Positions 3,986 to 55,367 of a DNA stretch of 64,000 nucleotides are shown here, piece by piece (position 1 is the first letter of the stretch; every line of letters starts with the position of its first letter). The stretch covers positions 5,012 through 69,011 of the forward strand of contig DAOUJL010000033.1 of assembly GCA_034422735.1 (NCBI GenBank), written 5' to 3'. The translations under genes were made by a program, and so were the position numbers. This DNA is from Dehalococcoidia bacterium (GTDB taxonomy: Bacteria; Chloroflexota; Dehalococcoidia; Lucifugimonadales; CATOSD01). The notes under the pieces are model-generated. The model searched no databases. It was given only the letters and a program-made list of their open reading frames with translations, and had not been told where the DNA came from.

Positions 3986-5043
3986 CCCTTCCTCCCGGGC
4001 AGTATCAGGCCCATGCGATGTTTCACTTCCTCCAGCTTGGGATCGGCGACCGCGCGCGCCTGGTCGGCGCCCCTCTCCAACAGCCGGTCCAACTCGGCGA
4101 CGTCCTCCATAAGCCGGTTGTGGCGCTCCCGGATGGGCGTCAGCGCCTCGATGACGACCTCCGCCACCCTGTTCTTCAGGTCGCCGTAGCCGCGGGCGTC
4201 GGCGAAGTCGGACTCCACCTCCGCCTCGGTCTTGTCGGTTATCACCTTGTAGATACCCAGCAGGTTGTTCACGCCCGCCCGGTCCGGCTCGTCGGAAAAG
4301 CGGATTTCGTTCTCGTTGTCGGTCACGGCGCGCCGGATGGAGCGCTGGATCTCGGCGGGTTCGTCGAGCAGCCGCACCGCGTGGCCGCGAATGTGCGAGA
4401 AGCTCTTGGACATCTTGACGTTGGGGTCGTTGAGCCCCATCACGCGGCCGCCGATTTCGGGAATGACCGCCTCCGGCACCACGAACGTGTCGCCGTAGAC
4501 GCGGTTGAACCGCTGGGCGATGTCGCGGGCAAGCTCCACGTGCTGCCGCTGGTCCTCGCCGACCGGCACTTCGTGCGCGTCGTACAGGATGATGTCGCCC
4601 GCCATCAGCACCGGATAGTCCAGCAGCCCGGTCGACACCCGCTCCTGGTTGTCCGCCTTCTCCTTGAACTGCGTCATGCGCTCCAGCCAGCCCACCGGCG
4701 TGACGCAGTTCAGCAGCCAGCACCCCTCCGCGTGCGCGGTGACGTGGCTCTGGATGAAGATGGTGCTCTTGTCCGGGTCCAGCCCCGCCGCGAACAGCAT
4801 CGCCGCCAGCGAGCGCGTCTGGTGGCGCAGCTCGTCGGGGTCCTGCGGCGTGGTGAGGGCGTGCAGGTCCACGATGCAGAAGAAGTTCTCCTTTTCCGCC
4901 TGCCTGTCCGCCCAACCCTTGATGGCGCCCAGGTAGTTGCCGAGCTGCACGTCGCCGCTCGGCTGGATGCCGCTGAACACACGCCTTCGAGTCTGGCTGG
5001 ACTCGCTTGCCCGCTCGTTCTCGGTCTTGACCTGCGTGCTCAT
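3982..5043 (-). CDS. trpS: tryptophan--tRNA ligase
   Basis: 353 aa from ATG 5043, with GGAGG about 8 nt upstream. Class I aaRS features: SGIQPSGDVQLGNYLGA and the KMSKS loop (VKMSKSF). Preceded by a Trp T-box. Confidence 0.93.
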   Translation of the reverse strand: MSTQVKTENERASESSQTRRRVFSGIQPSGDVQLGNYLGAIKGWADRQAEKENFFCIVDLHALTTPQDPDELRHQTRSLAAMLFAAGLDPDKSTIFIQSHVTAHAEGCWLLNCVTPVGWLERMTQFKEKADNQERVSTGLLDYPVLMAGDIILYDAHEVPVGEDQRQHVELARDIAQRFNRVYGDTFVVPEAVIPEIGGRVMGLNDPNVKMSKSFSHIRGHAVRLLDEPAEIQRSIRRAVTDNENEIRFSDEPDRAGVNNLLGIYKVITDKTEAEVESDFADARGYGDLKNRVAEVVIEALTPIRERHNRLMEDVAELDRLLERGADQARAVADPKLEEVKHRMGLILPGRKG

Positions 5044-9329: not shown

Positions 9330-10478
9330 CTACTTGCGGATTATGGCGTTGCCTTCTCTCCGCCAGCGCGCGCTCAGGTAGTCGCTCGCGTCGAGCAGCT
9401 TGTCCAGCGAAGGATACTCCGACTCGCTGAGCTTGGGCGCGCCTAGCACCTTGGCCGCGTCGGAAGCCGCGGCCTGTCCGGATATGCGCTCGCGCTCGCG
9501 GTTGGTCCACGCCTCGGCGATGTGAATGTCCCACTTGGAATCGCCCTGGCCGGACGGACTCGCGGCGGCCTGGGGCTCTATCCGAAGAATCTCGACAGCC
9601 TCCGGGGCCTGCGGATCGGACGCCGGGCTCTCGACGCTCTTCTCCCGCTTCGGCTTGTCCGCGTCCCCGGACCGTCCACGGGCCGCTCCGCCGTCGCCGG
9701 ACTGCGGTCGCCGCTGTCTACTACCGCCGCCCACGATCTGCGGACGGGGAGGCGCGCCGCCGTTCGCGCCCTGCGTGCGAGAGTTAGTGAAGCTGACGAT
9801 TGTGTCGCCGCCGTCCGCCGGCCTCTCTACGACTACGTCCTTCAAAGACTCCAGGAAGCGGGTGAACGTGCTGTGGCCGAGCGCCTTGTAGCTGAAGCTG
9901 GGGTCGATTCGCTGCATCGTCTGGTACAGCCTCGAGCCGCCGACGACGCCCTCGGAGTCCATAGACGCGTTGATCGCGCGGCGCAGCAACGCCTCGCCTT
10001 GCGGTTCGCTCGACCTGCGCCGGCGCCGCTGGGCCTGCGCGGCGGGCTTGGGGTCGTCTTCAAGGTAGATATAGCGGTCGCAGGACTTCACCAGCGTTGG
10101 TGAAGAGTGGCCCCGCCTCCCGGCGCCAATCGCCGTCTTGCCCGCGGAGCGCAGCTTGTTCACAAGCGGCACGAAATCGCTGTCCGAGGATACGATGACG
10201 AACACGTCCACCGGCGCGCTGTACAGCAAGTCTATCGCGTCGATGGTGAGTGAAATGTCGCTGGAGTTCTTGCTCTGCTTCGTCGAGCGGAAGTGGTGAG
10301 ACGCTTCGATTCCGTACTCCAGAAGCTGGTCGCGCTTGCTGCGATGCACCGACCAGTCGGCGTAGGCCCGCTTGATAATGACCCTTCCAACGTCGGATAA
10401 CTGGTCCAGAAGGGACTCCATCGATTCAAGCCCCACGTTCTCGTAATCCACCAGCACGGCTACATTTTCTTCGGCCAA
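9330..10478 (-). CDS. NYN-domain (PIN-like RNase fold) protein with OST-HTH/LOTUS domain and a long C-terminal extension
   Basis: 382 aa. NYN part VAVLVDYENV...ISLTIDAIDLLYSAPVDVFVIVSSDSDFVPLVNKLRSAGKTAIG. LOTUS-like part LLRRAINASMDSEGVVGGSRLYQTMQRIDPSFSYKALGHSTFTRFLESL. Then a low-complexity Gly/Arg/Pro linker and a roughly 70-aa C-terminal domain. Confidence 0.75.
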   Translation of the reverse strand: MAEENVAVLVDYENVGLESMESLLDQLSDVGRVIIKRAYADWSVHRSKRDQLLEYGIEASHHFRSTKQSKNSSDISLTIDAIDLLYSAPVDVFVIVSSDSDFVPLVNKLRSAGKTAIGAGRRGHSSPTLVKSCDRYIYLEDDPKPAAQAQRRRRRSSEPQGEALLRRAINASMDSEGVVGGSRLYQTMQRIDPSFSYKALGHSTFTRFLESLKDVVVERPADGGDTIVSFTNSRTQGANGGAPPRPQIVGGGSRQRRPQSGDGGAARGRSGDADKPKREKSVESPASDPQAPEAVEILRIEPQAAASPSGQGDSKWDIHIAEAWTNRERERISGQAAASDAAKVLGAPKLSESEYPSLDKLLDASDYLSARWRREGNAIIRK

Positions 10479-14050: not shown

Positions 14051-15136
14051 CTAGCCTGAAATGTCTGCCAGCGCCTGCAGCACCTGCTGCGGAGAAGGCC
14101 TGTCGTAGGTGCTGCCCAGGTACTTCCACCTGATGACGCCGGAACTGTCGATTACGAATGTGGATGGCCTGGCCAGATTGTTGTCCTGCGGGTTGAGCAC
14201 GCCGTAGGCCTGCACAACGTCCTTCTCAGGGTTGTACAGAATCGGGAACGGCACGCCCGAATTTCTGGCCATGGCCTGGGCGTTGGACAGGTTGTCTACG
14301 CTTATCGCCACCACTATCGCGTTATGGTCCTTGATTGCGCTGTACTGGTTTGTCAACTCGACGAGTTGCTGCTTGCAGAATGGTCACCAGTATGCACGAT
14401 AGAAGACGATCACCAGGTTTCCCTGCCCCAGCCGCTCGTCTGTCGAGAACTCCCCGCCGTCGAATCTCGGCAGCGTAAACGACGGCGCCACCTGCCCAAC
14501 CTCGGTGCCCGTCGCCGGCTCAGGCGCGACCGTCGCGGTTGGCGGAACTGCCGTGGCAGTGGGTGGCACCGCGGTGGCAGTGGGCGGGACGGCAGTGGCG
14601 GTCGGTTGCGCTGCGGCGGTGGCTGTTGGTGGCACGGACGTCGCGGTCGGCGGCGCCGCGGCGGTCGCAGTGGGCGGCGCCGCGGTGGCTGTCGGCGGTA
14701 CTGCCGTAGCGGTGGGTGGCACCGCGGTGGCAGTCGGTTCCGGAGTCTCGGTCGGCTGCACCACGGGGATGGTCGTTGGTACGGGCGCCGGAGTCAGTGT
14801 CGCCTGGGACGCGGCAGTTTCCACCGGCCACCGTGTGGGCGTCGGCTCCAGCGCGGAACGCGGCTGAGCGGTCCCTCTTGGTTGAGCGGGTACCGCCGGC
14901 TGTGGCGTGGGTAAGGCCGGCGCCTGTGTGGCGGCAGGCGGCGCTGTCGTCGCCTGGGGAACTGTTACGGCGGTATGCGTTGGCTCCGCCGCGGCGCCGG
15001 ATGCTCCTGCTTCCTGATCGCCGCCGGTGGAAGACTCACCGCACGCGAGCAGGCCGTACGACAGCAACAGGACGGCCGACAATACGACAGTCAGCCTGAA
15101 TCCACTCAGCTTCAATTTACTTCTCTCCAACTTCAC
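14051..15136 (-). CDS. candidate selenoprotein: lipoprotein with Pro/Thr-repeat linker and thioredoxin-fold (AhpC/TSA-redoxin-like) domain with a UxxC motif (in-frame TGA at 14386..14384)
   Basis: ORFs 14384..15136 and 14051..14356 share one frame. They are separated only by a TGA plus 9 sense codons. Read-through gives ...LVIVFYRAYW-U-PFCKQQLVELTNQYSAIKDHNAIVVAISVD.... Lipobox LLAC. The likely true start is TTG 15115, with GGAGAG 7 nt upstream. If not read through as Sec, this is a pseudogene. Confidence 0.6.
14354..14368 (-). promoter_or_regulatory. candidate bacterial SECIS-like hairpin
   Basis: Perfect inverted repeat CAACTC-GTC-GAGTTG, beginning 15 nt downstream of the in-frame UGA. The apical loop contains G about 20 nt from the UGA. 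The stem is short (5-6 bp), so this is weak on its own. Confidence 0.35.
14525..14737 (-). repeat. about 10 tandem copies of a 21-nt coding repeat (heptapeptide PPTATAV and variants)
   Basis: Protein segment PTATAVPPTATAVPPTATAAPPTATAAAPPTATSVPPTATAAAQPTATAVPPTATAVPPTATAVPPTATVAP. The plus strand shows repeated GGTGGCACCGCGGTGGCAGTG-like units. Confidence 0.85.
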
Positions 15137-15247: not shown

Positions 15248-16648
15248 ATGAAGCGAGCGAATCCCTCTCCGTCGCTGTTCGCCGATCTATATCAACTCAC
15301 CATGGCGCAGGCCCTTTGGCAAAGCGGGACCACGGCTGAAGGCACGTTCAGTCTGTACTTTCGCAAGCACCTGCCGGGCAGGGCCTTCTACGTCTTCGCC
15401 GGCCTCCAGCAAGCCTTGGAGCATCTCGAGCGGCTTTCGTTCGAGGCTGAAGATATTGCATACCTACGTTCAACCGGCCTCTTCGACGACGATTTCCTCG
15501 ACTACCTGGGATTGCTCAGATTCACCGGAAGAGTCAGGGCCGTTCCAGAGGGTACGATTGTGTTCGCCGGTGAGCCGGTCATCGAGGTTTCCGCGCCCAT
15601 AGTGGAAGCGCAAATCCCCGAGACTTTTCTCGTCAACTGCATCAACTCCAACACGCTGTTCGCCTCTAAGGCCGCCCGCGTCGTCTACGCCGCCCGCGGC
15701 CGAAACGTCTATGACTTTGCCGCACGCCGCACTCACGGGCTTGACGCCGCCGACAAGTTTGCGCGCGTGAGCTACATGGTGGGGTTCGACGGCACCAGTA
15801 ACCTCGTCGCGGGCGCCCGCCACGGCATCCCGGTCGTTGGCACCATGGCCCATTCGTTCGTTTCCGCGTTCGACGACGAGACCGAAGCATTTCGCAGCTA
15901 CGCCCGCTCTTTTCCGGCCGCGAGTACCCTGCTTGTTGACACCTATGATACCCTAAATGGGACTCTGAGGGCCATACAGGTTGCCCGGGAGATGCGCTTG
16001 GACGGCCAGGAACTCCGCGCTATACGGCTGGACAGCGGCGACCTCGCCGACCTCGCCGTGGAGTGCCGGGCACTTCTGAATCGCGATGGGTTCGGAGGCG
16101 TCAGAATAATCGCCAGTGGCGCGCTCGACGAATACTCGATTGACGAACTGCTTAGAGCCAGCGCGCCCATCGACGGTTTTGGGGTCGGCACGAAAGCGGG
16201 CGTATCGGAGGACGCGCCCTGGGCAGACTCCGTCTACAAACTCGTGGCCTACGGTGGCAGACTCACGATGAAGCTCAGCGACGACAAGGAAACAATTCCA
16301 GGCTCTAAGCAAGTCTACCGCTACTACGGCAGGGCGGGGCAGCCCCTCCGCGATATCATGACTACTGCCACCGAGCCCCGTCCTTCACCCGGTGCGCGGC
16401 CCATGCTGACGGAAGTGATGAGAAACGGCAAGATTACTGTCGACCTGCCGGAATTGGGAGAGTTGCGAGACAGGTTCGGCTCGGAGTTCGTACAACTCGA
16501 CCGGCGCTACAAGAGGCTGCGTACCTCGCCGGATTCCTACGAGGTGGCGGTCAGTAAGGAACTGTCTGGCCTGCAGGCCAGCGCTGCCACCATGTTCCGC
16601 AAGCGGAGCGACGTGGTCGTCGACGAATCTCTGTCGGAAAGATCCTGA
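15248..16648 (+). CDS. pncB: nicotinate phosphoribosyltransferase
   Basis: 466 aa. LFADLYQLTMAQALW, GTMAHSFV, IRLDSGDL motifs of the NAPRTase family. Confidence 0.88.
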   Translation: MKRANPSPSLFADLYQLTMAQALWQSGTTAEGTFSLYFRKHLPGRAFYVFAGLQQALEHLERLSFEAEDIAYLRSTGLFDDDFLDYLGLLRFTGRVRAVPEGTIVFAGEPVIEVSAPIVEAQIPETFLVNCINSNTLFASKAARVVYAARGRNVYDFAARRTHGLDAADKFARVSYMVGFDGTSNLVAGARHGIPVVGTMAHSFVSAFDDETEAFRSYARSFPAASTLLVDTYDTLNGTLRAIQVAREMRLDGQELRAIRLDSGDLADLAVECRALLNRDGFGGVRIIASGALDEYSIDELLRASAPIDGFGVGTKAGVSEDAPWADSVYKLVAYGGRLTMKLSDDKETIPGSKQVYRYYGRAGQPLRDIMTTATEPRPSPGARPMLTEVMRNGKITVDLPELGELRDRFGSEFVQLDRRYKRLRTSPDSYEVAVSKELSGLQASAATMFRKRSDVVVDESLSERS

Positions 16649-17217
16649 TGGCGCGCCTTCCATACATCGGCAGGAACGACCTTCCCGACGATAAGCGTCC
16701 GATCTTCGACCGGATCGCCGAGCGTCGTAGCGGCCCTGAATCCGGCGGAGCACTGCCCCACTCGTTCGCGCTTTTGCTCAACAGCCCCGATGCCGCGGAG
16801 GCAGTAGGCGCGCTTGGCGAGTACGTGCGATGGGGAAGTCCCTTGGACCCCGCCGCGAGAGAGATCGCCATTCTGGCCGCCGCGATGGAGATGGGCAGCG
16901 AATACGTGTGGCAACACCACGAGCCTGTCGCCCGCCGCGAGGGCGTGCGCGAGGAGACCATCGAGGCCATCCGCTCCGGCAGGGCGCCGATGGGCCTGCC
17001 CGCCAAGGAGGGTGTGTTCGCCCAGGCGGCACGCGAGATCGTTCGCAACGGCACGCTGACCGATCGTACCTTTCAGGCTATTCATCACCTGCTGGGCGCG
17101 GCCCTCACCGTCGATCTGGTCGTCGCGGTAAGCTACTACGTCATGCTGGCGAGGGCGCTAGGCTCCCTCGGCATCGACCTCGAAGACGGGCTCCGGTCCA
17201 CGCCTGGCCTTCCGTAG
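16648..17217 (+). CDS. carboxymuconolactone decarboxylase (AhpD-like) family protein
   Basis: 189 aa. The ATG overlaps the pncB TGA by 1 nt. All-helical CMD-like sequence (...REIAILAAAMEMGSEYVWQHHEPVARREG...). Confidence 0.7.
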   Translation: MARLPYIGRNDLPDDKRPIFDRIAERRSGPESGGALPHSFALLLNSPDAAEAVGALGEYVRWGSPLDPAAREIAILAAAMEMGSEYVWQHHEPVARREGVREETIEAIRSGRAPMGLPAKEGVFAQAAREIVRNGTLTDRTFQAIHHLLGAALTVDLVVAVSYYVMLARALGSLGIDLEDGLRSTPGLP

Positions 17218-31938: not shown

Positions 31939-32070
31939 GTGGCGTTTGGGTTACGCGGCTGGGAAGCTCTGGGACACAGTTCAGGGTGGGATTGCGCGGT
32001 GGTGGGAAGGGGTGTAGCTTTTGGGTTACGCGGTTGGGAAGGTATGGGGCACGAATTTTGGGGTGGACTC
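31939..32070 (+). repeat. about 1.75 copies of an imperfect 75-nt tandem repeat, G-tract rich
   Basis: The unit starts GTGGCGTTTGGGTTACGCGGCTGGGAAGCTCTGGGACAC... (31939) and repeats as GTAGCTTTTGGGTTACGCGGTTGGGAAGGTATGGGGCAC... (32014). Confidence 0.75.
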
Positions 32071-32134
32071 GGCGCCGCCGGCCGGTCGGGAGGCTGGTAG
32101 TCGGCGACGCTTAACGAACGAAGGGAGAATCGTA

Positions 32135-32665
32135 GTGAAGACGAGAATCGGGAAACTCGGTTTGGCTTTGACAGCGGCAGTCGCGCTGATGCTCGCAGCC
32201 GCGGCGTGCGGCGACGACGGCAGCAGTTGGGGCGATGCGCGCTACACCGCCGAGATGCGGAACGTGGAGGGCGAACCCATAGGCACTGTCGTGATGCAGC
32301 AAGGCTCTGGGGGATTCCTGGTGACCGTCATGGTGGAAGGAATCGAACCCGGCCCGCACGGCATCCACATCCACTCGGTCGGGACGTGCACACCGGATTT
32401 CAAGGCGTCGGGCGGACACATCAACGTGGACGATCGCCAACACGGGCTGCTCAATCCGGACGGCCCGGACAACGGCGACCTGCCCAACATCTACGCCGCC
32501 GCCAATGGCGCCGTGCAGGCCGAACTCTTCACTACGCTGGTTGACCCGGACATGCTGATGGACGACGACGGGTCCGCCATCGTGATCCACGAGAACCGCG
32601 ACGACCACAACACGCAGCCTATCGGGGGAGCCGGAGGGCGCGTCGCCTGCGGCGTGCTTAACTAG
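32135..32665 (+). CDS. sodC: Cu/Zn superoxide dismutase, lipoprotein
   Basis: 176 aa from GTG 32135, with AAGGGAG 7 nt upstream. Signal peptide plus lipobox LAAAAC. SodC motifs HGIHIHSVGTC, GGHINV, NGDLPN, IVIHENRDD, GGAGGRVACGVL. Confidence 0.88.
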   Translation: MKTRIGKLGLALTAAVALMLAAAACGDDGSSWGDARYTAEMRNVEGEPIGTVVMQQGSGGFLVTVMVEGIEPGPHGIHIHSVGTCTPDFKASGGHINVDDRQHGLLNPDGPDNGDLPNIYAAANGAVQAELFTTLVDPDMLMDDDGSAIVIHENRDDHNTQPIGGAGGRVACGVLN

Positions 32666-33920: not shown

Positions 33921-36900
33921 ATGGTTCCCCTCAACACCCGCAGGCTGATCGTCAAACGCCTGTTAGACGATTGGAAGCTCTTGCTCAGTATCTTTCTGGG
34001 CTTTGTAATCACCACTACGCTGGTCGCGGGCGCGCCCGTCTACTTTCGCTCGCTTCAGAGGGTGAGCGTCAACACGGCCATCGACAGGGCCTCCGTCTTC
34101 TTCCTCAACTTCTTCGCCTACGCCCCGCACGTGCAGTTCGACAGGGACAACGTGCTGCTGAGCGAGTCCCATCTCGTCGACGCCATAGACCGGCACATCT
34201 CCGAGATATACAGGAGCCACGAGCGGTACATCCAGTCTCCCACCTTCCTCGTCGGCAAGCCCAACTCCCCGCTGCCCAACCAGCCCGGGGCCGCCGACCA
34301 GGTGTCCCGCGGATATGTCCAGTACCTTTCCAACATGGGCGGCCACGTCGAGTTTCTTTCCGGCCGCCTCCCTACGGACTCGCTGTCACAGGGACCGCGC
34401 GGCCCGGTATTCGAGGCCATGGTCGGCTCCAGGCAGGCGCGCGTGTTCGACCTCGAAGTCGGCGACGAGGTGGTGCTGACCCCCTCCCTCGGCGACCCTG
34501 TCCGCGTCACCGCGACGATAGCCGGCGTTATAGAAGCAATCGACCCACTGGACGAGTACTGGAGCCGCAACGCGGAGGCCTATCTCAACCCCGCACCCCT
34601 GGAGGAGGAGGTCGACGTCGAGGTAACCGTAGACCCGGCCGAGCCCCCGTTATCACTCTTCGTCACGCTCGAATCGCTGATTACGGGCGTGGGGGACGCC
34701 TATCCCGGCTCTGTGGCCAGCATGCACTGGAACGTGTTCATCGACAAGGAGCCGCTGAAGCGGTGGTCGATTCCGGATACCCGGGACCGGATCACGCAGG
34801 TAGAGAACGACTTCACGCAGGCGCTGCCCGGCGCGGCCGTGTTTACCGGCATATCCCGCCTGCTGGACAACTACGAGCGCCGCAGCTTCTTCACCGGCAT
34901 CCCATTACTGCTGCTCATCACCGTCATGCTCCTCACGGTGCTCTACTCCATCGCCATGATGGTGTCCTACCTGGTCCAGAGCCGCGAGGACGACGTTGCC
35001 CTGCTGCGAAGTCGCGGCGTTAGCGCGTTCCAACTGCTGCGGCTGTACGCCCTCGAGGGCGCCATTCTCGCCGTGACCGCCGCGGTGCTGGCGCCATTCC
35101 TCGCCATGGCCGTCGTGGCGCTCGCCGGCCTGCTGCCCTACTTCAGCGAGATAAAACAGAGCGTACTGCTTCCGATCGATCTCCACTGGTACCCGTTCGC
35201 CCTGTCCGCTGCGGTCGGATTCGTCTGCCTCGCCATGTTCGTGGTACCGGCTCTCATCGGCTCCAGGGCCGGGCTGATAGCCCACAAGCTGCGCTCGTCC
35301 CGCCCGCCGTCCGTGCCGCTGTTCCAGCGTTACTACGTCGACGTGGCAATACTCATAGTGGGCGGCCTCATCTTCTGGGAATTGCAGCAGCGGGGCCAGT
35401 TCGTCTCGGGCGGGCTGTTCGAGGACGTGCAGGTAAACGAGGCGATGTTGCTGGCGCCCGTGCTCTTCCTGGTCGCTGTCGCGCTGCTCTTCATGCGGCT
35501 GTTTCCGCTGTTCGTCCGATTCCTGAATGGCGACGCGCCGACGCTGCTGCACCTGCTCGCCGGCGTTACGGTGGCGGTGCTGGCCATCGGCGTCGTGCTG
35601 GACACGCTGGGCTCCGGCCTCACGGACTACGCGGCCCCGCTCGCCCTGCTCGCGGCCGCCGCCGCGGCGTACACGTACTCCCACCGGTCGGAGGGAGCCG
35701 TGTCGCGTGGGGCCGCAATGGTCGCCCAGGTCGCGGCGACGGCGCTGTTCATCCTTCGCGACCCTCCCTCGCCCGGCGAGGCCGCATTCATCCCGACAGT
35801 CGCGCTGGCGGCGCTCGTTCCGCTGCACCTGCTCTTTCTCGCCCTGCGCCACTTCGCCAGGACGTCGCCCGTCTGGGTGTCCATGGCGCTGCTGAGGATG
35901 GCCCGCAACCCGTTGCAGTACACCTGGCTGGTGCTGCTGCTGGTGCTGGTCACCGGGCTTGGCGTGCTCGCGACGACCGTTGGCGGCACTCTGAACCGCA
36001 GCTACGAGGAGCGCGTCCTATACGACACGGCCACCGACATTCGCGTGGCCGACATGCCCGGCTACATCGCCAGGGGCACAAGCGCCGTAAAGGAGACTTA
36101 CCTCCAGATCCCGGGAGTGACGCAGGTGTCGCTCGCGCTGCGCGGACAGGGGCTGGTGGGCACGACCGTCTCGGGCATTCACTTCGACCTGCTTGCGGTC
36201 GAATCCGACGATTTCCAGTACATGTCGTGGTACCGAGACGACTTCTCCGCCGCGCCTCTGAGCGGCGTCATGCGGTCGCTCCAGCCCATCTCGCGCCACG
36301 AGCCGCTAGTTCTGCCCCAGGACGCGGAGACGTTCGGCATGTGGGTCAAGCCCGGTGGAGAGTACTCCAACATGTTCCTGTGGGCCGCCATGCAGGACTC
36401 CACCGGAATCGTGAAGACCCTCTCACTCGGAGAGGTAGGCCCGGAGGAATGGCAGCTCATGAGCGGCCGGATGCCGTCCGGCATGGTGCCGCCCGTGGTG
36501 CTGGCCGCCATCCAGACCTACGAACCGGTCTTCGGCCCGACCGGAACCGCCGGCTCGCTGCTGATGGACGACATGCACGTCACGACCGGCAACGGCGACG
36601 ATTTCGTGTTGGTGGACGGCTTCGAGGGCCGCTCGAACTGGACTCCCCTGGCCACCTCGCCGCTCTCCACCGACAGCATCGCGCCGACGTCACAGGAGTT
36701 CCGCAGCGGCCAGGCGGCGGGCCTGTTCGTGTTCGGCAAGGACACCGACCGGGGAATCAGGGGCTTCTATCAGAGCCCAAGCGGCGGACCTCTTCCCGTG
36801 GTGGCAAGCTCCAGGTTCCTTGAGACGACCGGCGCCCGCGTTGGCGACGTGATGATTCTGGACGTAATGAGCCGACTCGTGCCGGTCCGTTTCACGAACC

Positions 36901-37577
36901 GCGTGAACTACTTCCCTACCATGACGTCACAGCGCAGCGGCTTTATTCTCACCGACCTGGACGACCTGCTGCGCCATCTGAACATTCTCAGCCCCACCAC
37001 CAGCTTCTACCCGAACGAGTTGTTCATCTCGGAAGCGCCCGGCGCGGGAGACTCGGTGAGCGAGACGATTCTGAGGCTGACGGGCACCACGGACCGCGTA
37101 TTCGACCGCGACGCCCGCCTGGAGGCCATCCGCCACGACCCGCTCATTACCGCGGGCTGGCGCGCCATGATGGCGCTTTCCCTGGGCCTGATAGTGTTTA
37201 CCGCCGGACTCGGGTATCTCATCTACCTCCTGGCATTCACCAACCGCGGACGCAACGAGATGGGCTTCCTTCAATCGCTGGGCATGACGGGACGCCAGGT
37301 GCTGGGGCTGCTCAGCATCGAGCACCTTGCCATAGTGCTGGTGGGTCTGGGCATCGGCACCTGGGCCGGTTTTCAGATGAGCTCCATCATGGTCTCGTCC
37401 GTCGCCGTGACCGAGTTGGGGGACCCGGTGGTGCCGCCTTTCGTGATGATGACGGACTGGCCTATGCTGGCGATCATCTACGCCACCACCGCGTCGATCT
37501 TCTTGCTGTCGACGCTGGCCCTGGCCAGGTCGATGCGGAACCTCGAACTCCACTCCATATCCAGGCTGGAGGGCTGA
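33921..37577 (+). CDS. giant double-module FtsX/MacB-type ABC permease (1218 aa), paralogue 1
   Basis: By eye there are two units of TM1 + large extracytoplasmic domain + 3 TM, for example ...SREDDVALLRSRGVSAFQLLRLYALEGAILAV... and ...RNEMGFLQSLGMTGRQVLGLLSIEHLAIVLVGLGIG.... They are joined by about 6 extra TM helices. The stop is 1 nt before the next start. Confidence 0.8.
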   Translation: MVPLNTRRLIVKRLLDDWKLLLSIFLGFVITTTLVAGAPVYFRSLQRVSVNTAIDRASVFFLNFFAYAPHVQFDRDNVLLSESHLVDAIDRHISEIYRSHERYIQSPTFLVGKPNSPLPNQPGAADQVSRGYVQYLSNMGGHVEFLSGRLPTDSLSQGPRGPVFEAMVGSRQARVFDLEVGDEVVLTPSLGDPVRVTATIAGVIEAIDPLDEYWSRNAEAYLNPAPLEEEVDVEVTVDPAEPPLSLFVTLESLITGVGDAYPGSVASMHWNVFIDKEPLKRWSIPDTRDRITQVENDFTQALPGAAVFTGISRLLDNYERRSFFTGIPLLLLITVMLLTVLYSIAMMVSYLVQSREDDVALLRSRGVSAFQLLRLYALEGAILAVTAAVLAPFLAMAVVALAGLLPYFSEIKQSVLLPIDLHWYPFALSAAVGFVCLAMFVVPALIGSRAGLIAHKLRSSRPPSVPLFQRYYVDVAILIVGGLIFWELQQRGQFVSGGLFEDVQVNEAMLLAPVLFLVAVALLFMRLFPLFVRFLNGDAPTLLHLLAGVTVAVLAIGVVLDTLGSGLTDYAAPLALLAAAAAAYTYSHRSEGAVSRGAAMVAQVAATALFILRDPPSPGEAAFIPTVALAALVPLHLLFLALRHFARTSPVWVSMALLRMARNPLQYTWLVLLLVLVTGLGVLATTVGGTLNRSYEERVLYDTATDIRVADMPGYIARGTSAVKETYLQIPGVTQVSLALRGQGLVGTTVSGIHFDLLAVESDDFQYMSWYRDDFSAAPLSGVMRSLQPISRHEPLVLPQDAETFGMWVKPGGEYSNMFLWAAMQDSTGIVKTLSLGEVGPEEWQLMSGRMPSGMVPPVVLAAIQTYEPVFGPTGTAGSLLMDDMHVTTGNGDDFVLVDGFEGRSNWTPLATSPLSTDSIAPTSQEFRSGQAAGLFVFGKDTDRGIRGFYQSPSGGPLPVVASSRFLETTGARVGDVMILDVMSRLVPVRFTNRVNYFPTMTSQRSGFILTDLDDLLRHLNILSPTTSFYPNELFISEAPGAGDSVSETILRLTGTTDRVFDRDARLEAIRHDPLITAGWRAMMALSLGLIVFTAGLGYLIYLLAFTNRGRNEMGFLQSLGMTGRQVLGLLSIEHLAIVLVGLGIGTWAGFQMSSIMVSSVAVTELGDPVVPPFVMMTDWPMLAIIYATTASIFLLSTLALARSMRNLELHSISRLEG

Positions 37578-37578
37578 T

Positions 37579-40500
37579 TTGTTCCAGCTCATCTACCTGG
37601 TATCGAGAGCTATCGCCGCCTGGCCGCTGGTCGTCCGCCGCAGCCTCGCCCACTGGCGCCTGCTGTCCACGGTCGTGGTGGGCGTGGTGCTGGCATCGGC
37701 AGTGATGTCCGGCACCGTCATCTACTACGACGCGTTGAGAGAGCTCGCGCTCAAGAGCACGCTCGCCCGGCTTACCGAAGACGAGGCCAACATCGTGGTC
37801 AAGGCCGACCGCGGCCCCACCACGGTCGAGGAATTCGCGAAGGTCGCCCGAACGGTGGACGCGGAGGTGGACGCGAGGGCCGCCTGGTTCCTCGAGGACC
37901 GCGTGATGGGCGCCAAGACGGCGACGTTCTTCCTGTCCCCGGTCGGTGATGAGGCAGGCGCGGGCCAGGACAACGCGCGCGCCTACTTCGCGTTCGTGCC
38001 TACGCTGGACGAGCAGATCCGAATCGTGAGCGGCGGCTGGGGCGCGCCGTCGGCCCCGAGCCCTCGCGGACAGCCGCTGCACCTGCAGGCGATTGTCCCG
38101 GCGGACGCCGCCGAGCTGTTCGGAGTCGGCATCGGGGACAGCCTGTCCGCGGTGCCGTACTGGAACGACGCCATTCCCTACGCCACCGTTACTATTTCCG
38201 GCATTTTCGAACGCACCGGCCCGGACGAGTTCTGGCACCTCGACACCGCCGTGCTTGCCGCCTCCACCTCCGGCAACTTCCGCACGATCCCGTTCTTCCT
38301 CACGAGGGAGGCCTACTTCGACACCCTCGGCGCTTCGTTCATCGACATGGACAGCACCTACGCCTGGCTGCTCCAGGTGGACCAGTCCACGCTGGACGCT
38401 CGCAACGCCTGGATTGCCAGAAGCGGTCTCGACACGATGGAGAGCCGCCTGTCCCGCAACCTGTTCAGCTACCGCCAGATAACGGAGCTCGAGGACGCTC
38501 TCGCCGACTACGACCGGCGTCTCTTCTTCAGCAAGCTGCCCATGTTCGTCGTCCTCGTGCTGATCGCGGTGGTCATCCTCTACTACGTCGTGACCATCTC
38601 GTCCCTCGTGGTCGAGCAGCAGCGCGGCGAGATAGCCCTGCTGCGCAGCAGAGGCGCGAGCTCCGCGCAGATCCTCGCCGTATTCGTGCTAGAGGGTCTG
38701 ACCATCTCTGTGCTCGCCGCCGTCGCCTCTCCTCTGATCGCGGCGTTCCTGATAAGCATCCTCGGCTACACTCCCGCGTTCTCCGACCTGAGCGGTGGGG
38801 ACAGGCTGGACGTGGCGATTTCCGGCGGCGCTTTCGCCATGGGCGCGCTCGGCGGCCTTCTCAGCTTCGCGGCCCTGCTCATTCCGGCCGTCCAGGCGTC
38901 CAAGGTCGGCGTAACCCGCCACAGGCAGGAGGCCGCGAGACCCACCGCGCAGCCTTTCTTCCTGCGCTACTATCTCGACGTCCTTCTGCTGGTCATCAGC
39001 GTCGTGCTATTCAGGCAGCTATCGGACCAGGGATCCGTGGTCGCCAGCAGCGTCTTTGGCGAGCTTGTGGTCAACCAAGCGCTGCTGGCAGTGCCCGCGC
39101 TCGTGCTCGTGGCCGTCGCTATGGTGCTGTTGCGGCTCTTCCCGCTGGCGATCCGCTTCCTGAGCGGCGACTCCCCCTCGCTGCTGCATCTCGTGGCTGG
39201 CGCGGCCGCCGCCATACTCGCGCCCTCTATAGTGGTGCGCGCCATCAACAACGGCGAGCCGCTGACCTGGATCGCACAGCTCGCCGCGCTGGCGGCGCTC
39301 GTGGCGGCATACTGGGCAACGGCCAGGACCGACGCCCCGCTGAGGCGATGGGCCGGAGTGGCCGCGCAGGCCGTCCTCGTGGCTGTCCTGATATCAGTCG
39401 GGCCGACCCTGCCGATGCCCCAGGTCTTCATTCCCATCCTGGTGGCCATTCCGATCGCCCAGGTGGCCTACCGGCTGCTGCACGCCTACGGGCTGAACGC
39501 CCCGGCGGGCTTCTCCATGGGTATGTGGCAGATGGCCCGCAGACCCACCCACTACGCTCGCCTGTCGCTGCTGCTGGTGCTGATGGCCGGACTCGGAATC
39601 GTGGCCGCCAGCTTCGGCGGCACGCTCGAGCGCAGCTTCGACGAGCGCGCCCGCTACTCCTCCGGCGCCGACCTGCGGCTGGAAGGCGTAATCCTGAACA
39701 CCCGGGGCCGGAGCGTCTCGGCCGTGGACGAATACCTCGCGCTGCCGGGCGTGTCGGTGGTCGGGCCGGCCTTCCGCGGGGCGGGCAGCGACCTGTCCGA
39801 GCTGCTGGGCGAAAGCTACACCATGGTGGCCGTCGATACCAGCGTGGTGAGCGAAGTCGGCTGGTTCCGGGAAGACTTCGCCGACCAGCCGATGCCCGAA
39901 CTCCTCGCCCGGCTCGAGCACCCCAGCCTGCCCGCCGGGTTGCCGCTGCCCGACGAGGCATCCGAGCTCTGGCTCGTCATCAAGACCGACAGGCCCCAGC
40001 CCGACGTCGGCGTTATCGCTCGCCTCAAGGACGCCAACGGACGCTACTACACCTACATCATGGGGCCGCTGGACTCGACCCAGTGGGAGCGAATGGCGGT
40101 GCCGCTGTTCCGTCGAGACGGAAGGGTTTTCAGCGGCAGGCGGCAGCTTCTGACTCCGCAGGTGCCCATGGAGCTCGTCTCGGTAAGCGTAAACAAGTTC
40201 GACGGGCGGGGCAGGCTCCGGGCCGGCACTATCTCCATAAGCCGGATCAGCGCTTTCACGCCCGAAGGCGAACAGGTCCTGGAATCGTTCGACGACGTGT
40301 ACGGCTGGAGCATCATCCGGGCCGCGCCGGAGTCCGTGTCCGACGCCATTCAACCAACCAACTCGTCGTTCGAAGGTGACACCGCCGCGGCCCAGTTCAT
40401 CTGGACGGAGGGCAACCCGCTGGTGAGCCGCGGCATGTTCTACGGCCCGCCCATAACCCCGGTGTCCGTGCTCGCCAGCGGGCTGTTCCTCAGGGAAACC

Positions 40501-41259
40501 GGCCACCGCGTGGGCGATACGTTCGAGGTGTCGGTGCAGGGCCACCGCCTGCCCGTCCACATAATCGAGAAGCTGGACTTCTTCCCCACGCTGGACACCT
40601 TCAACAGGCTGTTCCTGGTGTCCGACCTCAGGGCGGTCGCGGCCCTCGCGAACCTGGACGTGACCGCCGGCGAGCTGCGTCCCAACGAGATGTGGATCGA
40701 GACGGCCATGAACGGCTCGGAGCGCGAGGAGTTGGTCGGAATCCTCACGGACGACCCGCCGTTCCCGTCCCGCAGGGTGCACGACACCTTGCAGAATCTC
40801 GAGGAATCGCAGGTAGACCCACTCGTTCAGGCCGGCTGGCGCGCGCTGCTGTTCATGGCCTTCACCGCCGTACTCATTCTCAGCGGCCTGGGTTTCCTGG
40901 TGCACGCCTACGTGTCGTTCAGAAGCCGCGAGATGGAGTTCGCGCTGATGCGTACCATCGGATTCTCCACGCGCCAGTTGACCACCCTGATATGGCTGGA
41001 GCAGGCGCTCATCATTGTCGCCGGCCTCGCGCTCGGCACCTGGATGGGCGGACGCATCGGCGCGATCATAATGCCGTTCCTCAGCAACGACGACCAGGGC
41101 AGCCAGGTGCTGCCGCCGTTCATACTCGAGGTCAACTGGACGACGCTGGCGATAACCTACGCAATTATGGCCGTGGCGTTCACGCTCATCATAACCGGTA
41201 TGATATGGTTCGTACGTCGAATCTCCCTCCAGCGCATCCTGCGCCTCGGGGAAATGTAG
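37579..41259 (+). CDS. giant double-module FtsX/MacB-type ABC permease (1226 aa), paralogue 2
   Basis: TTG start with GGAGGG 5 nt upstream. Same architecture as paralogue 1 (...QQRGEIALLRSRGASSAQILAVFVLEGLTISV... and ...SREMEFALMRTIGFSTRQLTTLIWLEQALIIVAGLALG...). Confidence 0.8.
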   Translation: MFQLIYLVSRAIAAWPLVVRRSLAHWRLLSTVVVGVVLASAVMSGTVIYYDALRELALKSTLARLTEDEANIVVKADRGPTTVEEFAKVARTVDAEVDARAAWFLEDRVMGAKTATFFLSPVGDEAGAGQDNARAYFAFVPTLDEQIRIVSGGWGAPSAPSPRGQPLHLQAIVPADAAELFGVGIGDSLSAVPYWNDAIPYATVTISGIFERTGPDEFWHLDTAVLAASTSGNFRTIPFFLTREAYFDTLGASFIDMDSTYAWLLQVDQSTLDARNAWIARSGLDTMESRLSRNLFSYRQITELEDALADYDRRLFFSKLPMFVVLVLIAVVILYYVVTISSLVVEQQRGEIALLRSRGASSAQILAVFVLEGLTISVLAAVASPLIAAFLISILGYTPAFSDLSGGDRLDVAISGGAFAMGALGGLLSFAALLIPAVQASKVGVTRHRQEAARPTAQPFFLRYYLDVLLLVISVVLFRQLSDQGSVVASSVFGELVVNQALLAVPALVLVAVAMVLLRLFPLAIRFLSGDSPSLLHLVAGAAAAILAPSIVVRAINNGEPLTWIAQLAALAALVAAYWATARTDAPLRRWAGVAAQAVLVAVLISVGPTLPMPQVFIPILVAIPIAQVAYRLLHAYGLNAPAGFSMGMWQMARRPTHYARLSLLLVLMAGLGIVAASFGGTLERSFDERARYSSGADLRLEGVILNTRGRSVSAVDEYLALPGVSVVGPAFRGAGSDLSELLGESYTMVAVDTSVVSEVGWFREDFADQPMPELLARLEHPSLPAGLPLPDEASELWLVIKTDRPQPDVGVIARLKDANGRYYTYIMGPLDSTQWERMAVPLFRRDGRVFSGRRQLLTPQVPMELVSVSVNKFDGRGRLRAGTISISRISAFTPEGEQVLESFDDVYGWSIIRAAPESVSDAIQPTNSSFEGDTAAAQFIWTEGNPLVSRGMFYGPPITPVSVLASGLFLRETGHRVGDTFEVSVQGHRLPVHIIEKLDFFPTLDTFNRLFLVSDLRAVAALANLDVTAGELRPNEMWIETAMNGSEREELVGILTDDPPFPSRRVHDTLQNLEESQVDPLVQAGWRALLFMAFTAVLILSGLGFLVHAYVSFRSREMEFALMRTIGFSTRQLTTLIWLEQALIIVAGLALGTWMGGRIGAIIMPFLSNDDQGSQVLPPFILEVNWTTLAITYAIMAVAFTLIITGMIWFVRRISLQRILRLGEM

Positions 41260-41287
41260 TGACCCTGCCAAAGGGATGGGAGTGAAG

Positions 41288-42178
<891 letters not shown>

Positions 42179-42179
42179 C

Positions 42180-42893
42180 GTGAACAGATACCAGCGGCTG
42201 ACCGCCGCCATCGACGTGACCCGGACCTACCGTCTCGGCTCAGAGGAAGTCACCGCCCTACGCGGCGTCAACCTCACCGTGTTGCCCGGCCAGTTCGTGG
42301 CGATAGTCGGCAGATCCGGCTCGGGCAAGACAACGCTTCTCAACATCCTGGCCGGCCTGGACAAGCCCACCTCCGGCGACGTGCTCTTCGAGGAGCGCAG
42401 CGTCAACGACATGGACGAACATGAACTCCTGGAGATTCGCCGCCACAAGCTCGGCTTCGTCTTCCAGTCGTTCGGCCTGCTGCCGCTCCTTTCCGCGCTG
42501 GAGAACGTGGAGCTCCCCCTGCGCATAGCCGGCGTGAAGGGCCGCGACCGGGAGGATAGGGCGCGTGAGGCGCTGGAGATGGTCGGCCTCTGGCCGCGTG
42601 CGCGCCACCGGCCCTACGAGCTGTCCGGCGGAGAGCAGCAGCGCGTCGCAATCGCGCGCGCGATAGTGAACAACCCGCCGCTCCTGCTCGCGGACGAGCC
42701 CACCGGCGAGCTCGACTCCGTGAACGCCAGGTCCATATTCGGGCTGTTCAAGCAGATGGTCCAAGAGCGCGGCATAAGCGTGCTCGCCGCCACCCACGAC
42801 TCCACGCTGCTGGAGATGGCCGACGAGGTCAAGGAAATCCGCGACGGCGTGCTGTTGGACCAGGCGGCGCAGGGACTACGCTTCCGCGACTAG
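42180..42893 (+). CDS. ABC transporter ATP-binding protein (MacB/LolD-type), second copy
   Basis: 237 aa. GTG start 1 nt after the previous stop, with GGAGGAG 7 nt upstream. Walker A GRSGSGKTT, LSGGEQQRVAIA, LLLADEPTGELD. Confidence 0.9.
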   Translation: MNRYQRLTAAIDVTRTYRLGSEEVTALRGVNLTVLPGQFVAIVGRSGSGKTTLLNILAGLDKPTSGDVLFEERSVNDMDEHELLEIRRHKLGFVFQSFGLLPLLSALENVELPLRIAGVKGRDREDRAREALEMVGLWPRARHRPYELSGGEQQRVAIARAIVNNPPLLLADEPTGELDSVNARSIFGLFKQMVQERGISVLAATHDSTLLEMADEVKEIRDGVLLDQAAQGLRFRD

Positions 42894-54428: not shown

Positions 54429-55367
54429 ATGAAGATAGACGACGAACTGGCCGCCCTCCGCGTCGAGCGCGACTCGATGCTCACTATCGGCGTCTTCGAC
54501 GGGGTGCATCGCGGCCACCGCCGCCTGCTGGCCAAGCTCGTCGACCAGGCTCGCCGCGCCGGCCGGGCCGCCGGGGTAGTGACGTTTCGCAACCACCCAG
54601 CATCCGTGCTGCGAGCCGATTTTCAGCCCAACTACCTGACCACCCTCGAGGACCGCCTGCACCTGCTGCGCGCGACCGGCGTCGATTTCGTGGCCCCCAT
54701 CACGTTCGACGCGGAGCTTTCCAGGCTCGACGCCAGGGCCTTCGCCGCGCGGCTGGTGTCCGCCCTGCGCATGAGGGGGCTGGTCGTGGGAGCCGACTTC
54801 GCGATGGGCCACGGGCGCGGCGGCGACCCTGAAGCGCTCGCCCAACTCGGCGAAGAGATGGGCTTTACCGTGCAGGCCGTGGACCTGCTCGCCGACGGAA
54901 CCCGGGCCGTGAAGAGCACCTCGATCCGCCGGGCACTGGCGGACGGCGACGTCGAGACGGTCGCCAAGATGCTGGGCCGCAGTTTCAGCTCCCAGGGCGT
55001 GGTCGCGGAAGGCGATAAGAGAGGGCGCGAGCTGGGCTTTCCTACCGCCAATGTCGAGACTCCGGCCGGTCTCGCCGTGCCCGCCAACGGCATCTACGCC
55101 GCGTGGGCACACTTCGACGACGAACGCCGCATGGCCGCGGTCAGCATAGGGGTCAGGCCCACGTTCGGCGAGAATCCGAGAGCGATCGAGGCCTATCTGC
55201 TAGAATACCAGGGAGACCTTTACGGCAAGACCATGCGCCTCGAGTTCGTTGCCCACCTGCGCGAGGAGCTCAAGTTCGACACGGTTGAAGCGCTGATAAC
55301 CCGGATGCGCGAAGACGTCCGCAAGACGAAAGAGATACTGCTGCACTCAGCGGAGGTAACCAATTGA
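54429..55367 (+). CDS. ribF: bifunctional riboflavin kinase / FMN adenylyltransferase
   Basis: 312 aa from ATG 54429. TIGVFDGVHRGHRRLL, ...GFPTANV..., GVYAAW-like and ...RPTFGEN..., LEFVAHLREELKF. Confidence 0.9.
   Translation: MKIDDELAALRVERDSMLTIGVFDGVHRGHRRLLAKLVDQARRAGRAAGVVTFRNHPASVLRADFQPNYLTTLEDRLHLLRATGVDFVAPITFDAELSRLDARAFAARLVSALRMRGLVVGADFAMGHGRGGDPEALAQLGEEMGFTVQAVDLLADGTRAVKSTSIRRALADGDVETVAKMLGRSFSSQGVVAEGDKRGRELGFPTANVETPAGLAVPANGIYAAWAHFDDERRMAAVSIGVRPTFGENPRAIEAYLLEYQGDLYGKTMRLEFVAHLREELKFDTVEALITRMREDVRKTKEILLHSAEVTN

Follow-up and report, generated by a model that had tools for sequence, protein, structure and literature searches.

A Single In-Frame UGA at the Redox Motif of a Dehalococcoidia Redoxin Gene: a Predicted Lipid-Anchored Member of the Prx-Like UxxC Selenoproteins

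A redoxin gene with one in-frame TGA

We analyzed a 64,000-nucleotide stretch of DNA (the window) from a Dehalococcoidia bacterium (assembly GCA_034422735.1, contig DAOUJL010000033.1, positions 5,012 to 69,011), in which a minus-strand gene for an AhpC/TSA-type redoxin is interrupted by one in-frame TGA. The gene starts with GTG at 15136-15134 (an orthologue, L013, has ATG there) and ends with TAG at 14053-14051, and the TGA at 14386-14384 is the only in-frame interruption across 15136..14051. An earlier reading of this DNA, made from the letters alone (the sequence-only reading), had placed open reading frames (ORFs) 14384..15136 and 14051..14356 in one frame, parted by the TGA and nine sense codons. 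This arrangement was confirmed, the nine codons lying between the TGA and a TTG at which ORF finders begin the downstream ORF. Read through, the junction is ...GNLVIVFYRAYW-TGA-PFCKQQLVELT.... The features of the gene are as follows.

14051..15136, minus strand: complete predicted selenoprotein gene of 361 codons, one of them the UGA, followed by a stop codon
15041..15136, minus strand: predicted signal peptide and lipobox, residues 1-32, made up of a basic n-region (KLERSKLKLSGFR), a hydrophobic core, and L-L-A-C
14510..15040, minus strand: linker (stalk) rich in Pro, Thr, Ala and Ser, about 177 residues
14054..14509, minus strand: AhpC/TSA (thioredoxin-fold) domain, residues 210-361 (PF00578, PF08534)
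14375..14386, minus strand: redox motif U-P-F-C, with UGA 14386-14384 as the predicted selenocysteine (Sec) codon and the resolving Cys at 14377-14375
14354..14368, minus strand: candidate selenocysteine insertion sequence (SECIS) hairpin CAACUC-GUC-GAGUUG, with a 6-bp stem and a 3-nucleotide loop that begins with G

When the protein was searched with Cys in place of the UGA, it matched the Pfam AhpC/TSA family PF00578 with an E value of 4.6e-31 (107.8 bits against a gathering cutoff of 26) and Redoxin PF08534 with an E value of 5.5e-23. The PF00578 match covers profile positions 1-123 of 124 and runs across the TGA, so that thioredoxin-fold sequence lies on both sides of it, as had been claimed. 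The TGA occupies the position of the first Cys of a W-C-x-x-C motif. Among solved structures, the closest by sequence were Mycobacterium tuberculosis AhpE (E about 1e-12), then BCP/PrxQ and ResA, and the Pfam and PDB matches together fix the fold of the domain. In the alignment of VFYRAYW-U-PFC with AhpE VFFPLAFTGIC, the predicted Sec falls on the Thr of the peroxiredoxin (Prx) motif and the second Cys on the peroxidatic Cys. The Pro of the Prx motif is an Arg in the window protein, and the position of the catalytic Arg varies among orthologues (LARPSTF, LATPSTF, LAAPSTF, and LAKPSTF). None of the NCBIfam models reached its cutoff with the window protein. By its sequence, the predicted active site is a W-U-x-x-C thioredoxin-type center on an AhpC/TSA scaffold and not that of a canonical peroxiredoxin.

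The predicted lipobox is G-L-L-A-C (context LLLSYGLLAC), with Cys32 at 15043-15041. The window protein has the bacterial lipoprotein signal pattern, a call made by pattern match only (basic n-region, hydrophobic core, and lipobox [LVI..][ASTVIL][GAS]C). The lipobox LLAC and the Pro/Thr linker, both pointed out in the sequence-only reading, recur among relatives: equivalent lipoboxes (ALTGC, VLLGC, ALYGC, LLVAC, LLLSC, ILLGC, and ALAAC) are found in most orthologues, and the linker retains its composition while its length ranges from about 50 to 265 residues. Within the window linker, 8.6 imperfect 21-nucleotide repeats coding for P-P-T-A-T-A-V lie at 14553-14738.

The 42 coding-like ORFs of the window end in TGA (about 12), TAG (27), or TAA (3). 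The HAD, trpS, and first FtsX genes all terminate with TGA, as had been reported. Since TGA is the ordinary stop of about 12 of the 42 ORFs, it is not reassigned genome-wide. No other convincing interrupted frame was found across the window ORFs, and scans for sigma-70 promoters and terminators gave nothing useful for the redoxin gene.

Conservation of the TGA at a cysteine position

We searched 5.8 billion proteins and found that the close relatives of the redoxin are solely fragments of 85 to 109 residues covering the part after the TGA (twelve clusters at 77-99% identity and six more at 50-59%), while full-length matches reach only 30-41% identity. The gene is thus split by public gene calls, and the pieces downstream of the TGA stand in public protein collections, just as the sequence-only reading had anticipated of standard gene callers. 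The fragments start at varying positions after the TGA, indicating that there is no conserved internal start.

Orthologous DNA was collected from the window, from ENA/Logan contigs, and from 16 GTDB species-representative loci, with one genome scanned per GTDB species. All 22 of the distinct orthologues recovered, at 44-99% identity, have the TGA at the identical codon, and the frame is open on both sides of the TGA in every one of them. The 22 sequences represent at least 14 species, nearly all of them metagenome-assembled genomes (MAGs) of Dehalococcoidia/Chloroflexota, including several closed chromosomes and one genome labelled Spirochaetia. The pair of residues that parts U from C differs among them (PF, PI, PV, TH, TF, VR, PY, TY, and VF). 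Two loci carry tandem redoxin copies, and each copy keeps the TGA at UxxC (L019, TGA at 9371 and 10124; L024, TGA at 10118 and 10853).

Full-length homologues have Cys at the position of the TGA, which is what an alignment proposed with the sequence-only reading was expected to show. The protein P0013 reads FYRAYLCPFC, P0022 to P0024 read FYRAYWCPFC, and Planctomycetota proteins have CPFC or CPYC. We also compared the segment after the TGA with 1.84 billion cluster representatives and inspected the best 150 matches. Ninety of these were short, lacked a CxxC, and were consistent with post-TGA fragments; 46 were Cys forms with the signature FYR(G/A)xWCxxCxxQL. The claim that the TGA replaces the first Cys of the redox motif therefore agrees with homologues that read FYR(A/G)xWCxxC.

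The ratio of nonsynonymous to synonymous substitution rates (omega, by the Nei-Gojobori method on unsaturated pairs) was 0.02-0.16 upstream and 0.09-0.15 downstream of the TGA. The synonymous divergence (dS) was 0.26-1.0 for close pairs and 0.6-1.6 for more distant pairs, so that the flanking synonymous sites have turned over between the compared clades. These values bear on whether the TGA is a nonsense mutation in an ordinary Cys-type redoxin gene, left by decay into a pseudogene or introduced by a mistake in sequencing or assembly. A single substitution turns TGC or TGT into TGA, and gene callers report only fragments, as they would for a broken gene. However, the identical TGA occurs in 22 sequences, which come from independently made assemblies of at least 14 species, and in both tandem paralogues of two genomes, omega is about 0.1 on both sides of it, and there are no further stops or frameshifts. 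Decay among relatives would have broken the gene at different places, and every orthologue is "broken" at this one codon. True decay of a redoxin gene has a different appearance, as seen in L029 (OY764155.1, about 10001-10198), a remnant in which the C-terminal two-thirds is intact while the N-terminal part, including the redox motif, has been replaced by unrelated, stop-containing sequence, so that the entire N-terminal half is lost. Conservation effectively refutes a pseudogene or error, to which we assign a vanishingly small probability. Taken together, the conserved TGA, the Cys forms, the selection on the frame, and the use of TGA as a stop rule out decay to a pseudogene, an error of sequencing, and a change of code across the genome.

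The same data speak to actual termination at the TGA. The product would then be a lipoprotein cut short after the signal, the stalk, and 41 residues of the fold, perhaps accompanied by a C-terminal fragment that is initiated on its own. Termination always competes with Sec insertion, so some truncated product is to be expected, and a TTG lies nine codons past the TGA. On the other hand, neither piece alone could form a thioredoxin fold, and the first start past the TGA differs among orthologues (products of 85 to 109 residues), leaving no conserved restart. A C-terminal fragment made in the cytoplasm would also be parted from the exported N-terminal half, and the downstream part is in frame and under equal purifying selection. 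We consider termination as the function of this codon highly improbable.

One further copy is recorded here as a side observation. The 7.0-Mb genome labelled Spirochaetia bacterium (L026, OZ253572.1) has a copy of the Sec type that reads FYRAFW-TGA-TYC and has a SECIS stem of 8 bp. In place of the lipobox and stalk, this copy has a short linker behind a plain signal or anchor. Its presence in that genome suggests either horizontal transfer or a mislabelled bin.

A conserved hairpin downstream of the UGA

The sequence-only reading had described a hairpin, CAACTC-GTC-GAGTTG, beginning 15 nucleotides past the UGA, and comparison with relatives strengthened this observation. In the window the hairpin is perfect, and the distance from the UGA to the loop is 21 nucleotides. 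A hairpin is present at an offset of 13-15 nucleotides after the UGA in all 22 orthologues, with the consensus CA[A/G]CU[C/G]-G[U/G]N-GAG[U/C]UG. The RNAalifold consensus structure of 21 sequences consisted of exactly this helix and no other. Standard pairs fill 99.2% of the stem cells, compared with 17-37% when the partners are slid by 1-3 columns. At the third stem position, 10 sequences have A-U, 9 have G-C, and 2 have G-U, and the non-pairing A/C never occurs. In divergent members the stem reaches 7-8 bp, with U-A, C-G, A-U, or G-C at the added position, and in L020 the top pair is lost, a G-C pair is gained at the base, and the loop has 5 nucleotides.

The stem overlaps the codons of Q-L-V-E-L, of which QL is also kept in the Cys forms. 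Given the window's own codon usage, a 6-bp stem is expected in 16% of draws, and the combination found in the window clade, CAA-CTC...GAG-TTG, in 0.13% of draws. The stem pairs two rare codons, CAA (10% of Gln codons) and TTG (5.7% of Leu codons). Among Cys-type genes of Planctomycetota, no hairpin recurs at a set distance, but these genes carry a differing peptide there and are hence a weak control.

The published geometry of the bacterial SECIS (bSECIS) has a loop of 3-9 nucleotides, a stem of 4-16 bp, and 16-37 nucleotides from the UGA to the loop, with a G, usually G[G|U], within the first two loop positions and a minimum free energy (MFE) of -7.5 kcal/mol or lower (PMC13188914). All 22 sequences fit this geometry, with a 6- to 8-bp stem, a G[U/G]N loop, and 21 nucleotides from the UGA to the loop. 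In the divergent clades the MFE is -11 to -21 kcal/mol, below the limit of -7.5 kcal/mol.

In the MFE fold of the window RNA (14320-14400, minus strand), UACUGG, which overlaps the UGG-UGA codons, pairs with CCAGUA 40 nucleotides downstream and encloses the hairpin. This longer lower stem was rejected as part of the SECIS because, by eye, it is not conserved beyond the close clade. It may have arisen by chance, or it may reinforce a weak SECIS in this clade alone.

Evidence for and against selenocysteine insertion

Several observations weigh against the insertion of Sec at this UGA. The window-clade hairpin has a free energy of -5.6 kcal/mol alone and -6.6 kcal/mol for the UGA plus 45 nucleotides, narrowly short of -7.5 kcal/mol. 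The fold of an 81-nucleotide segment of the window, which takes in the longer lower stem (-18.8 kcal/mol, z = -1.28), is unremarkable, and no Rfam family matched the window at gathering thresholds. The covariation in the stem is limited to one or two pairs among phylogenetically related sequences. A degraded stem is retained in P0013, the nearest Cys homologue, and on that account the conserved Q-L-V-E-L peptide may be a partial source of the stem. Finally, searches of the window, a further 10 kb of its contig, and about 20 related loci yielded no selA, selB, selD, or tRNA-Sec.

Two of these points, the low stability of the hairpin and the lack of Sec machinery in the searched DNA, also speak for the possibility that the UGA is read through as an amino acid other than Sec. 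This could be Cys, along the known route in which a tRNA resembling tRNA-Sec carries Cys, or Trp, through near-cognate suppression. Nevertheless, a codon read as Cys or Trp would not be held as UGA against UGC or UGU where synonymous sites are saturated, and 22 of 22 sequences keep UGA. The distant homologues show only Cys, the classic Sec/Cys pair. The geometry of the hairpin and its G[U/G] loop fit a SECIS of the SelB type (PMC13188914), and the protein belongs with a recognized selenoprotein family (PMC1088965, PMC2398784). Readthrough with Cys or Trp is therefore improbable in our judgment.

We conclude that UGA 14386-14384 is very probably translated as Sec within one polypeptide of 361 residues. 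The proposal of the sequence-only reading, a UxxC selenoprotein of the AhpC/TSA-redoxin type, is supported by the conserved UGA, the Cys homologues, and the hairpin with its compensatory changes and bSECIS geometry.

Selenocysteine machinery and gene neighborhood

The slices of DNA that were searched for Sec machinery are small parts of chromosomes of about 2.5-3.7 Mb, which makes its absence from them uninformative rather than negative. ARAGORN detected no tRNA-Sec in the window and 20 loci. A tblastn search with E. coli SelA, SelB, and SelD returned only AIRS-family matches at 27% in the window and related loci, and Pfam annotation of the window showed no Sec machinery. Extension of the window scaffold (scaffold_648, 107.8 kb) by 10 kb added only trp-operon genes. 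In a protein search with E. coli SelD, the best 120 of 8,000 candidates were all from Enterobacterales. One SelD-like gene, in L008, was rejected since its motifs read as ThiL. Separately, at 4437-4510 (plus strand) of L017, ARAGORN called a tRNA-like gene to which it gave no identity and whose anticodon has four bases (cgca).

Other Dehalococcoidia have the machinery. The cultured Dehalogenimonas alkenigignens has selC, selB, selA, and selD, and its SelD and FdhA contain Sec (PMC4918011). In BSepDB, two Dehalococcoidia MAGs are among the ten bacteria richest in selenoproteins, with 46-49 genes each, and one of the two carries an isolate name of the same naming series (PMC13326102). Among the loci collected here, L020 carries the redoxin and, 3 kb away, a second gene with two conserved sites of UGA plus hairpin. 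The Dehalogenimonas genome, the MAG selenoprotein counts, and L020 give indirect support to the ability of the class to decode Sec. That Dehalococcoidia are rich in selenoproteins is already known.

The neighbors of the redoxin gene encode an NAPRTase, a CMD-family protein without CxxC, CoA-transferases, an aminotransferase, and an amidohydrolase, and no functional link to a redox partner or operon logic emerged from the neighbors in the window and syntenic loci. The CMD/AhpD-family gene (16648-17217, plus strand) lies two genes from the redoxin, in a neighborhood that is kept in relatives. Pairs of Prx-like and AhpD-like selenoprotein genes have been noted in the literature; the window CMD protein, however, has neither CxxC nor UxxC and reads ...EYVWQHHEP....

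Elsewhere in the window, a Cu/Zn superoxide dismutase gene (Sod_Cu; 32021-32665, plus strand) with an N-terminal extension of about 85 residues possibly encodes another exported antioxidant enzyme of the same genome, and a luciferase-like monooxygenase is also encoded. These two and other window enzymes suggest an aerobic lifestyle, which would fit a role of the redoxin in extracytoplasmic defense against oxidative stress. Three FtsX/MacB-type permeases of unusual length (1218, 1226, and 1213 residues) are encoded at 33921-42893 and 59639-63280 (plus strand), two of them just upstream of two adjacent ABC ATPase genes. The TGA at 56462-56464 (plus strand) ends a class-V aminotransferase gene (55364-56464). 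Beyond it the frame continues as a coding-like ORF of 158 codons without a Pfam match; these are probably two adjacent genes.

A model for an exported selenoenzyme

In the model that we propose, the hairpin at 14368-14354, 15 nucleotides past the UGA, would act as a bacterial SECIS when the ribosome nears the UGA. The hairpin would recruit SelB-GTP with Sec-tRNA(Sec), and Sec would be inserted in place of termination. The protein would then be exported through its N-terminal signal peptide and lipid modified at Cys32, and the Pro/Thr-rich stalk of about 180 residues would hold it at the outer face of the cytoplasmic membrane.

The catalytic domain lacks the Pro, the Thr, and the conserved Arg of peroxiredoxins, and for this reason it is most likely an exported thiol:disulfide (selenylsulfide) oxidoreductase or a reductant of oxidized thiols or peroxides. 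In the predicted reaction, Sec would attack the substrate and the neighboring Cys would resolve the intermediate, producing an intramolecular Se-S bond that a putative membrane electron donor would reduce again. Sequence comparison shows the conserved UGA, the Cys of homologues, selection on both sides of the UGA, the conserved and covarying hairpin, the fold, and the export signal; from these we infer Sec as the inserted residue, the part played by SelB, and the kind of substrate and electron donor.

A broader picture can be offered only tentatively, and we regard it as rather doubtful: a lipid-anchored, stalked selenoenzyme displayed on the surface of aerobic-looking Dehalococcoidia (a class described as single-membraned), its UGA decoded through an unusually small, sub-threshold SECIS. 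If it were true, decoding by such a small SECIS would imply a lineage-specific mode of SelB-RNA recognition, and Sec would resist over-oxidation at the cell surface.

Since redoxin copies stand only as fragments in the searched public proteins, a conserved exported redox enzyme of widespread environmental Dehalococcoidia escapes standard pipelines. The gene would add a lipid-anchored, stalk-displayed member to the Prx-like UxxC selenoproteins and would provide a clear case in nature of a minimal SECIS, with 6 bp and a triloop, missed by standard energy thresholds. About 13% of the catalogued bacterial selenoprotein genes are reported to lack a canonical SECIS (PMC13326102), and a minimal sub-threshold SECIS bears on that class. 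What is known of Sec decoding and of Prx-like 1 chemistry is left unchanged by the window gene. The gene would not surprise a specialist; its practical value lies in the correction of an annotation and in the record of a sub-threshold SECIS.

A thiolase-like gene with two in-frame TGAs

The second gene of L020 (9098-10336, minus strand), about 3 kb from the redoxin, is thiolase-like, and this gene of related Chloroflexota also occurs in L061 and L062 (6001-7182) and in L063 to L142. It matches Pfam Thiolase_C_1, its closest structure is 9myr, a "nonspecific lipid-transfer protein" (E 3e-75), and a DUF35/ChsH2-type partner lies downstream of it in L061 and L062. No NCBIfam model reached its cutoff with this gene. 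We compared 80 metagenome loci from marine, soil, and sediment samples together with genomic examples.

The first TGA site corresponds to the Cys of YD[C]YT and is TGA in 66 loci and TGC or TGT in 14. A GC-rich hairpin follows the site in the TGA forms and is mostly absent from the Cys forms. At the second site (...VNG-TGA-GG(T)(A/G)S...), 77 of 77 loci have TGA, and the frame runs on through 18 conserved codons to a real stop. A hairpin 11 nucleotides downstream of the second site is 98-100% paired at five core positions and covaries (U-A in 33 sequences, A-U in 9), with two fully compensated alternative stems; in most sequences the loop G is at the third position. The sole two full-length homologues without the second TGA have Asn or Ser there and not Cys, which is unusual for a Sec site. 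Neither the 2026 selenoproteome review (PMC13188914) nor the deep-Sep paper mentions a thiolase. The gene may represent an uncatalogued selenoprotein family, or a different recoding of UGA at the second site. It is abundant in soil and marine metagenomes and may matter more than the redoxin.

Comparison with known systems

The Prx-like thiol:disulfide oxidoreductase, or Prx-like protein, was catalogued as a selenoprotein family in 2005 (PMC1088965). It was listed under the former name in a 2006 survey of bacterial genomes (PMC1794560), and as "Prx-like 1" (pfam00578, UxxC) in the 2008 analysis of Global Ocean Sampling (GOS) data, with 225 selenoproteins and 2,740 Cys homologues (PMC2398784). 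A 2026 review describes the family, with PF00578 and UxxC/UxxU, as "predicted with high confidence" (PMC13188914). The window protein and Prx-like 1 have in common PF00578, a UxxC that replaces TxxC/TxxU, abundant Cys homologues, and a small SECIS just past the UGA with a G in the apical loop. They differ in the lipoprotein signal and long Pro/Thr stalk of the window clade, the papers being silent on export signals in the family, and in the minimal SECIS of the window clade, a 6-bp stem and a triloop below the usual energy threshold. On its sequence, the window gene has the defining features of Prx-like 1, whose reference protein is WP_010940744.1 (Geobacter); the placement was made by features. 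The family itself is long known; the Dehalococcoidia clade, the lipobox with its Pro/Thr stalk, and the minimal SECIS are the new specifics.

With strict peroxiredoxins (AhpE, BCP/PrxQ, and AhpC; motif PxxxTxxC, Sec forms TxxU), the window protein shares the fold. BCP matches it with an E value of about 1e-11, and it is again the second Cys of UxxC that aligns with the peroxidatic Cys. The window motif FYRAYWUPFC, in contrast to PxxxTxxC, has neither the Pro nor the Thr, the catalytic Arg is not conserved, and the scores with NCBIfam peroxiredoxin models are far below their cutoffs. Assignment as a strict peroxiredoxin was rejected on these grounds.

ResA, TlpA, CcmG/DsbE, and StoA are likewise exported, membrane-tethered, thioredoxin-fold proteins with a W-C-x-x-C center, and ResA is among the best structural and NCBIfam matches of the window protein. 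These proteins are held by a transmembrane helix and use Cys, whereas the window protein has a predicted lipid and stalk anchor and a predicted Sec. Membership was rejected by the scores, which were 51.8 bits against 170 for ResA, 33.8 against 123 for DsbE, and 17.9 against 230 for TlpA. Genes for CcdA/DsbD or cytochrome c maturation were not found in the window or the syntenic loci.

The best NCBIfam model was the SelL-related redox protein NF040769 (E 3.7e-14), which combines a Prx-like fold with a Sec dyad motif. The score of 52.8 bits against a cutoff of 120 led us to reject this assignment as well. The motif of the window protein is UxxC; SelL proper has UxxU. As for the predicted export of the window protein, there appears to be a precedent for lipoprotein signals in selenoproteins: a 2022 preprint on new selenoprotein families, including ones in ABC transport, contains the phrase "lipoprotein signal" (bioRxiv 10.1101/2022.07.06.499078).

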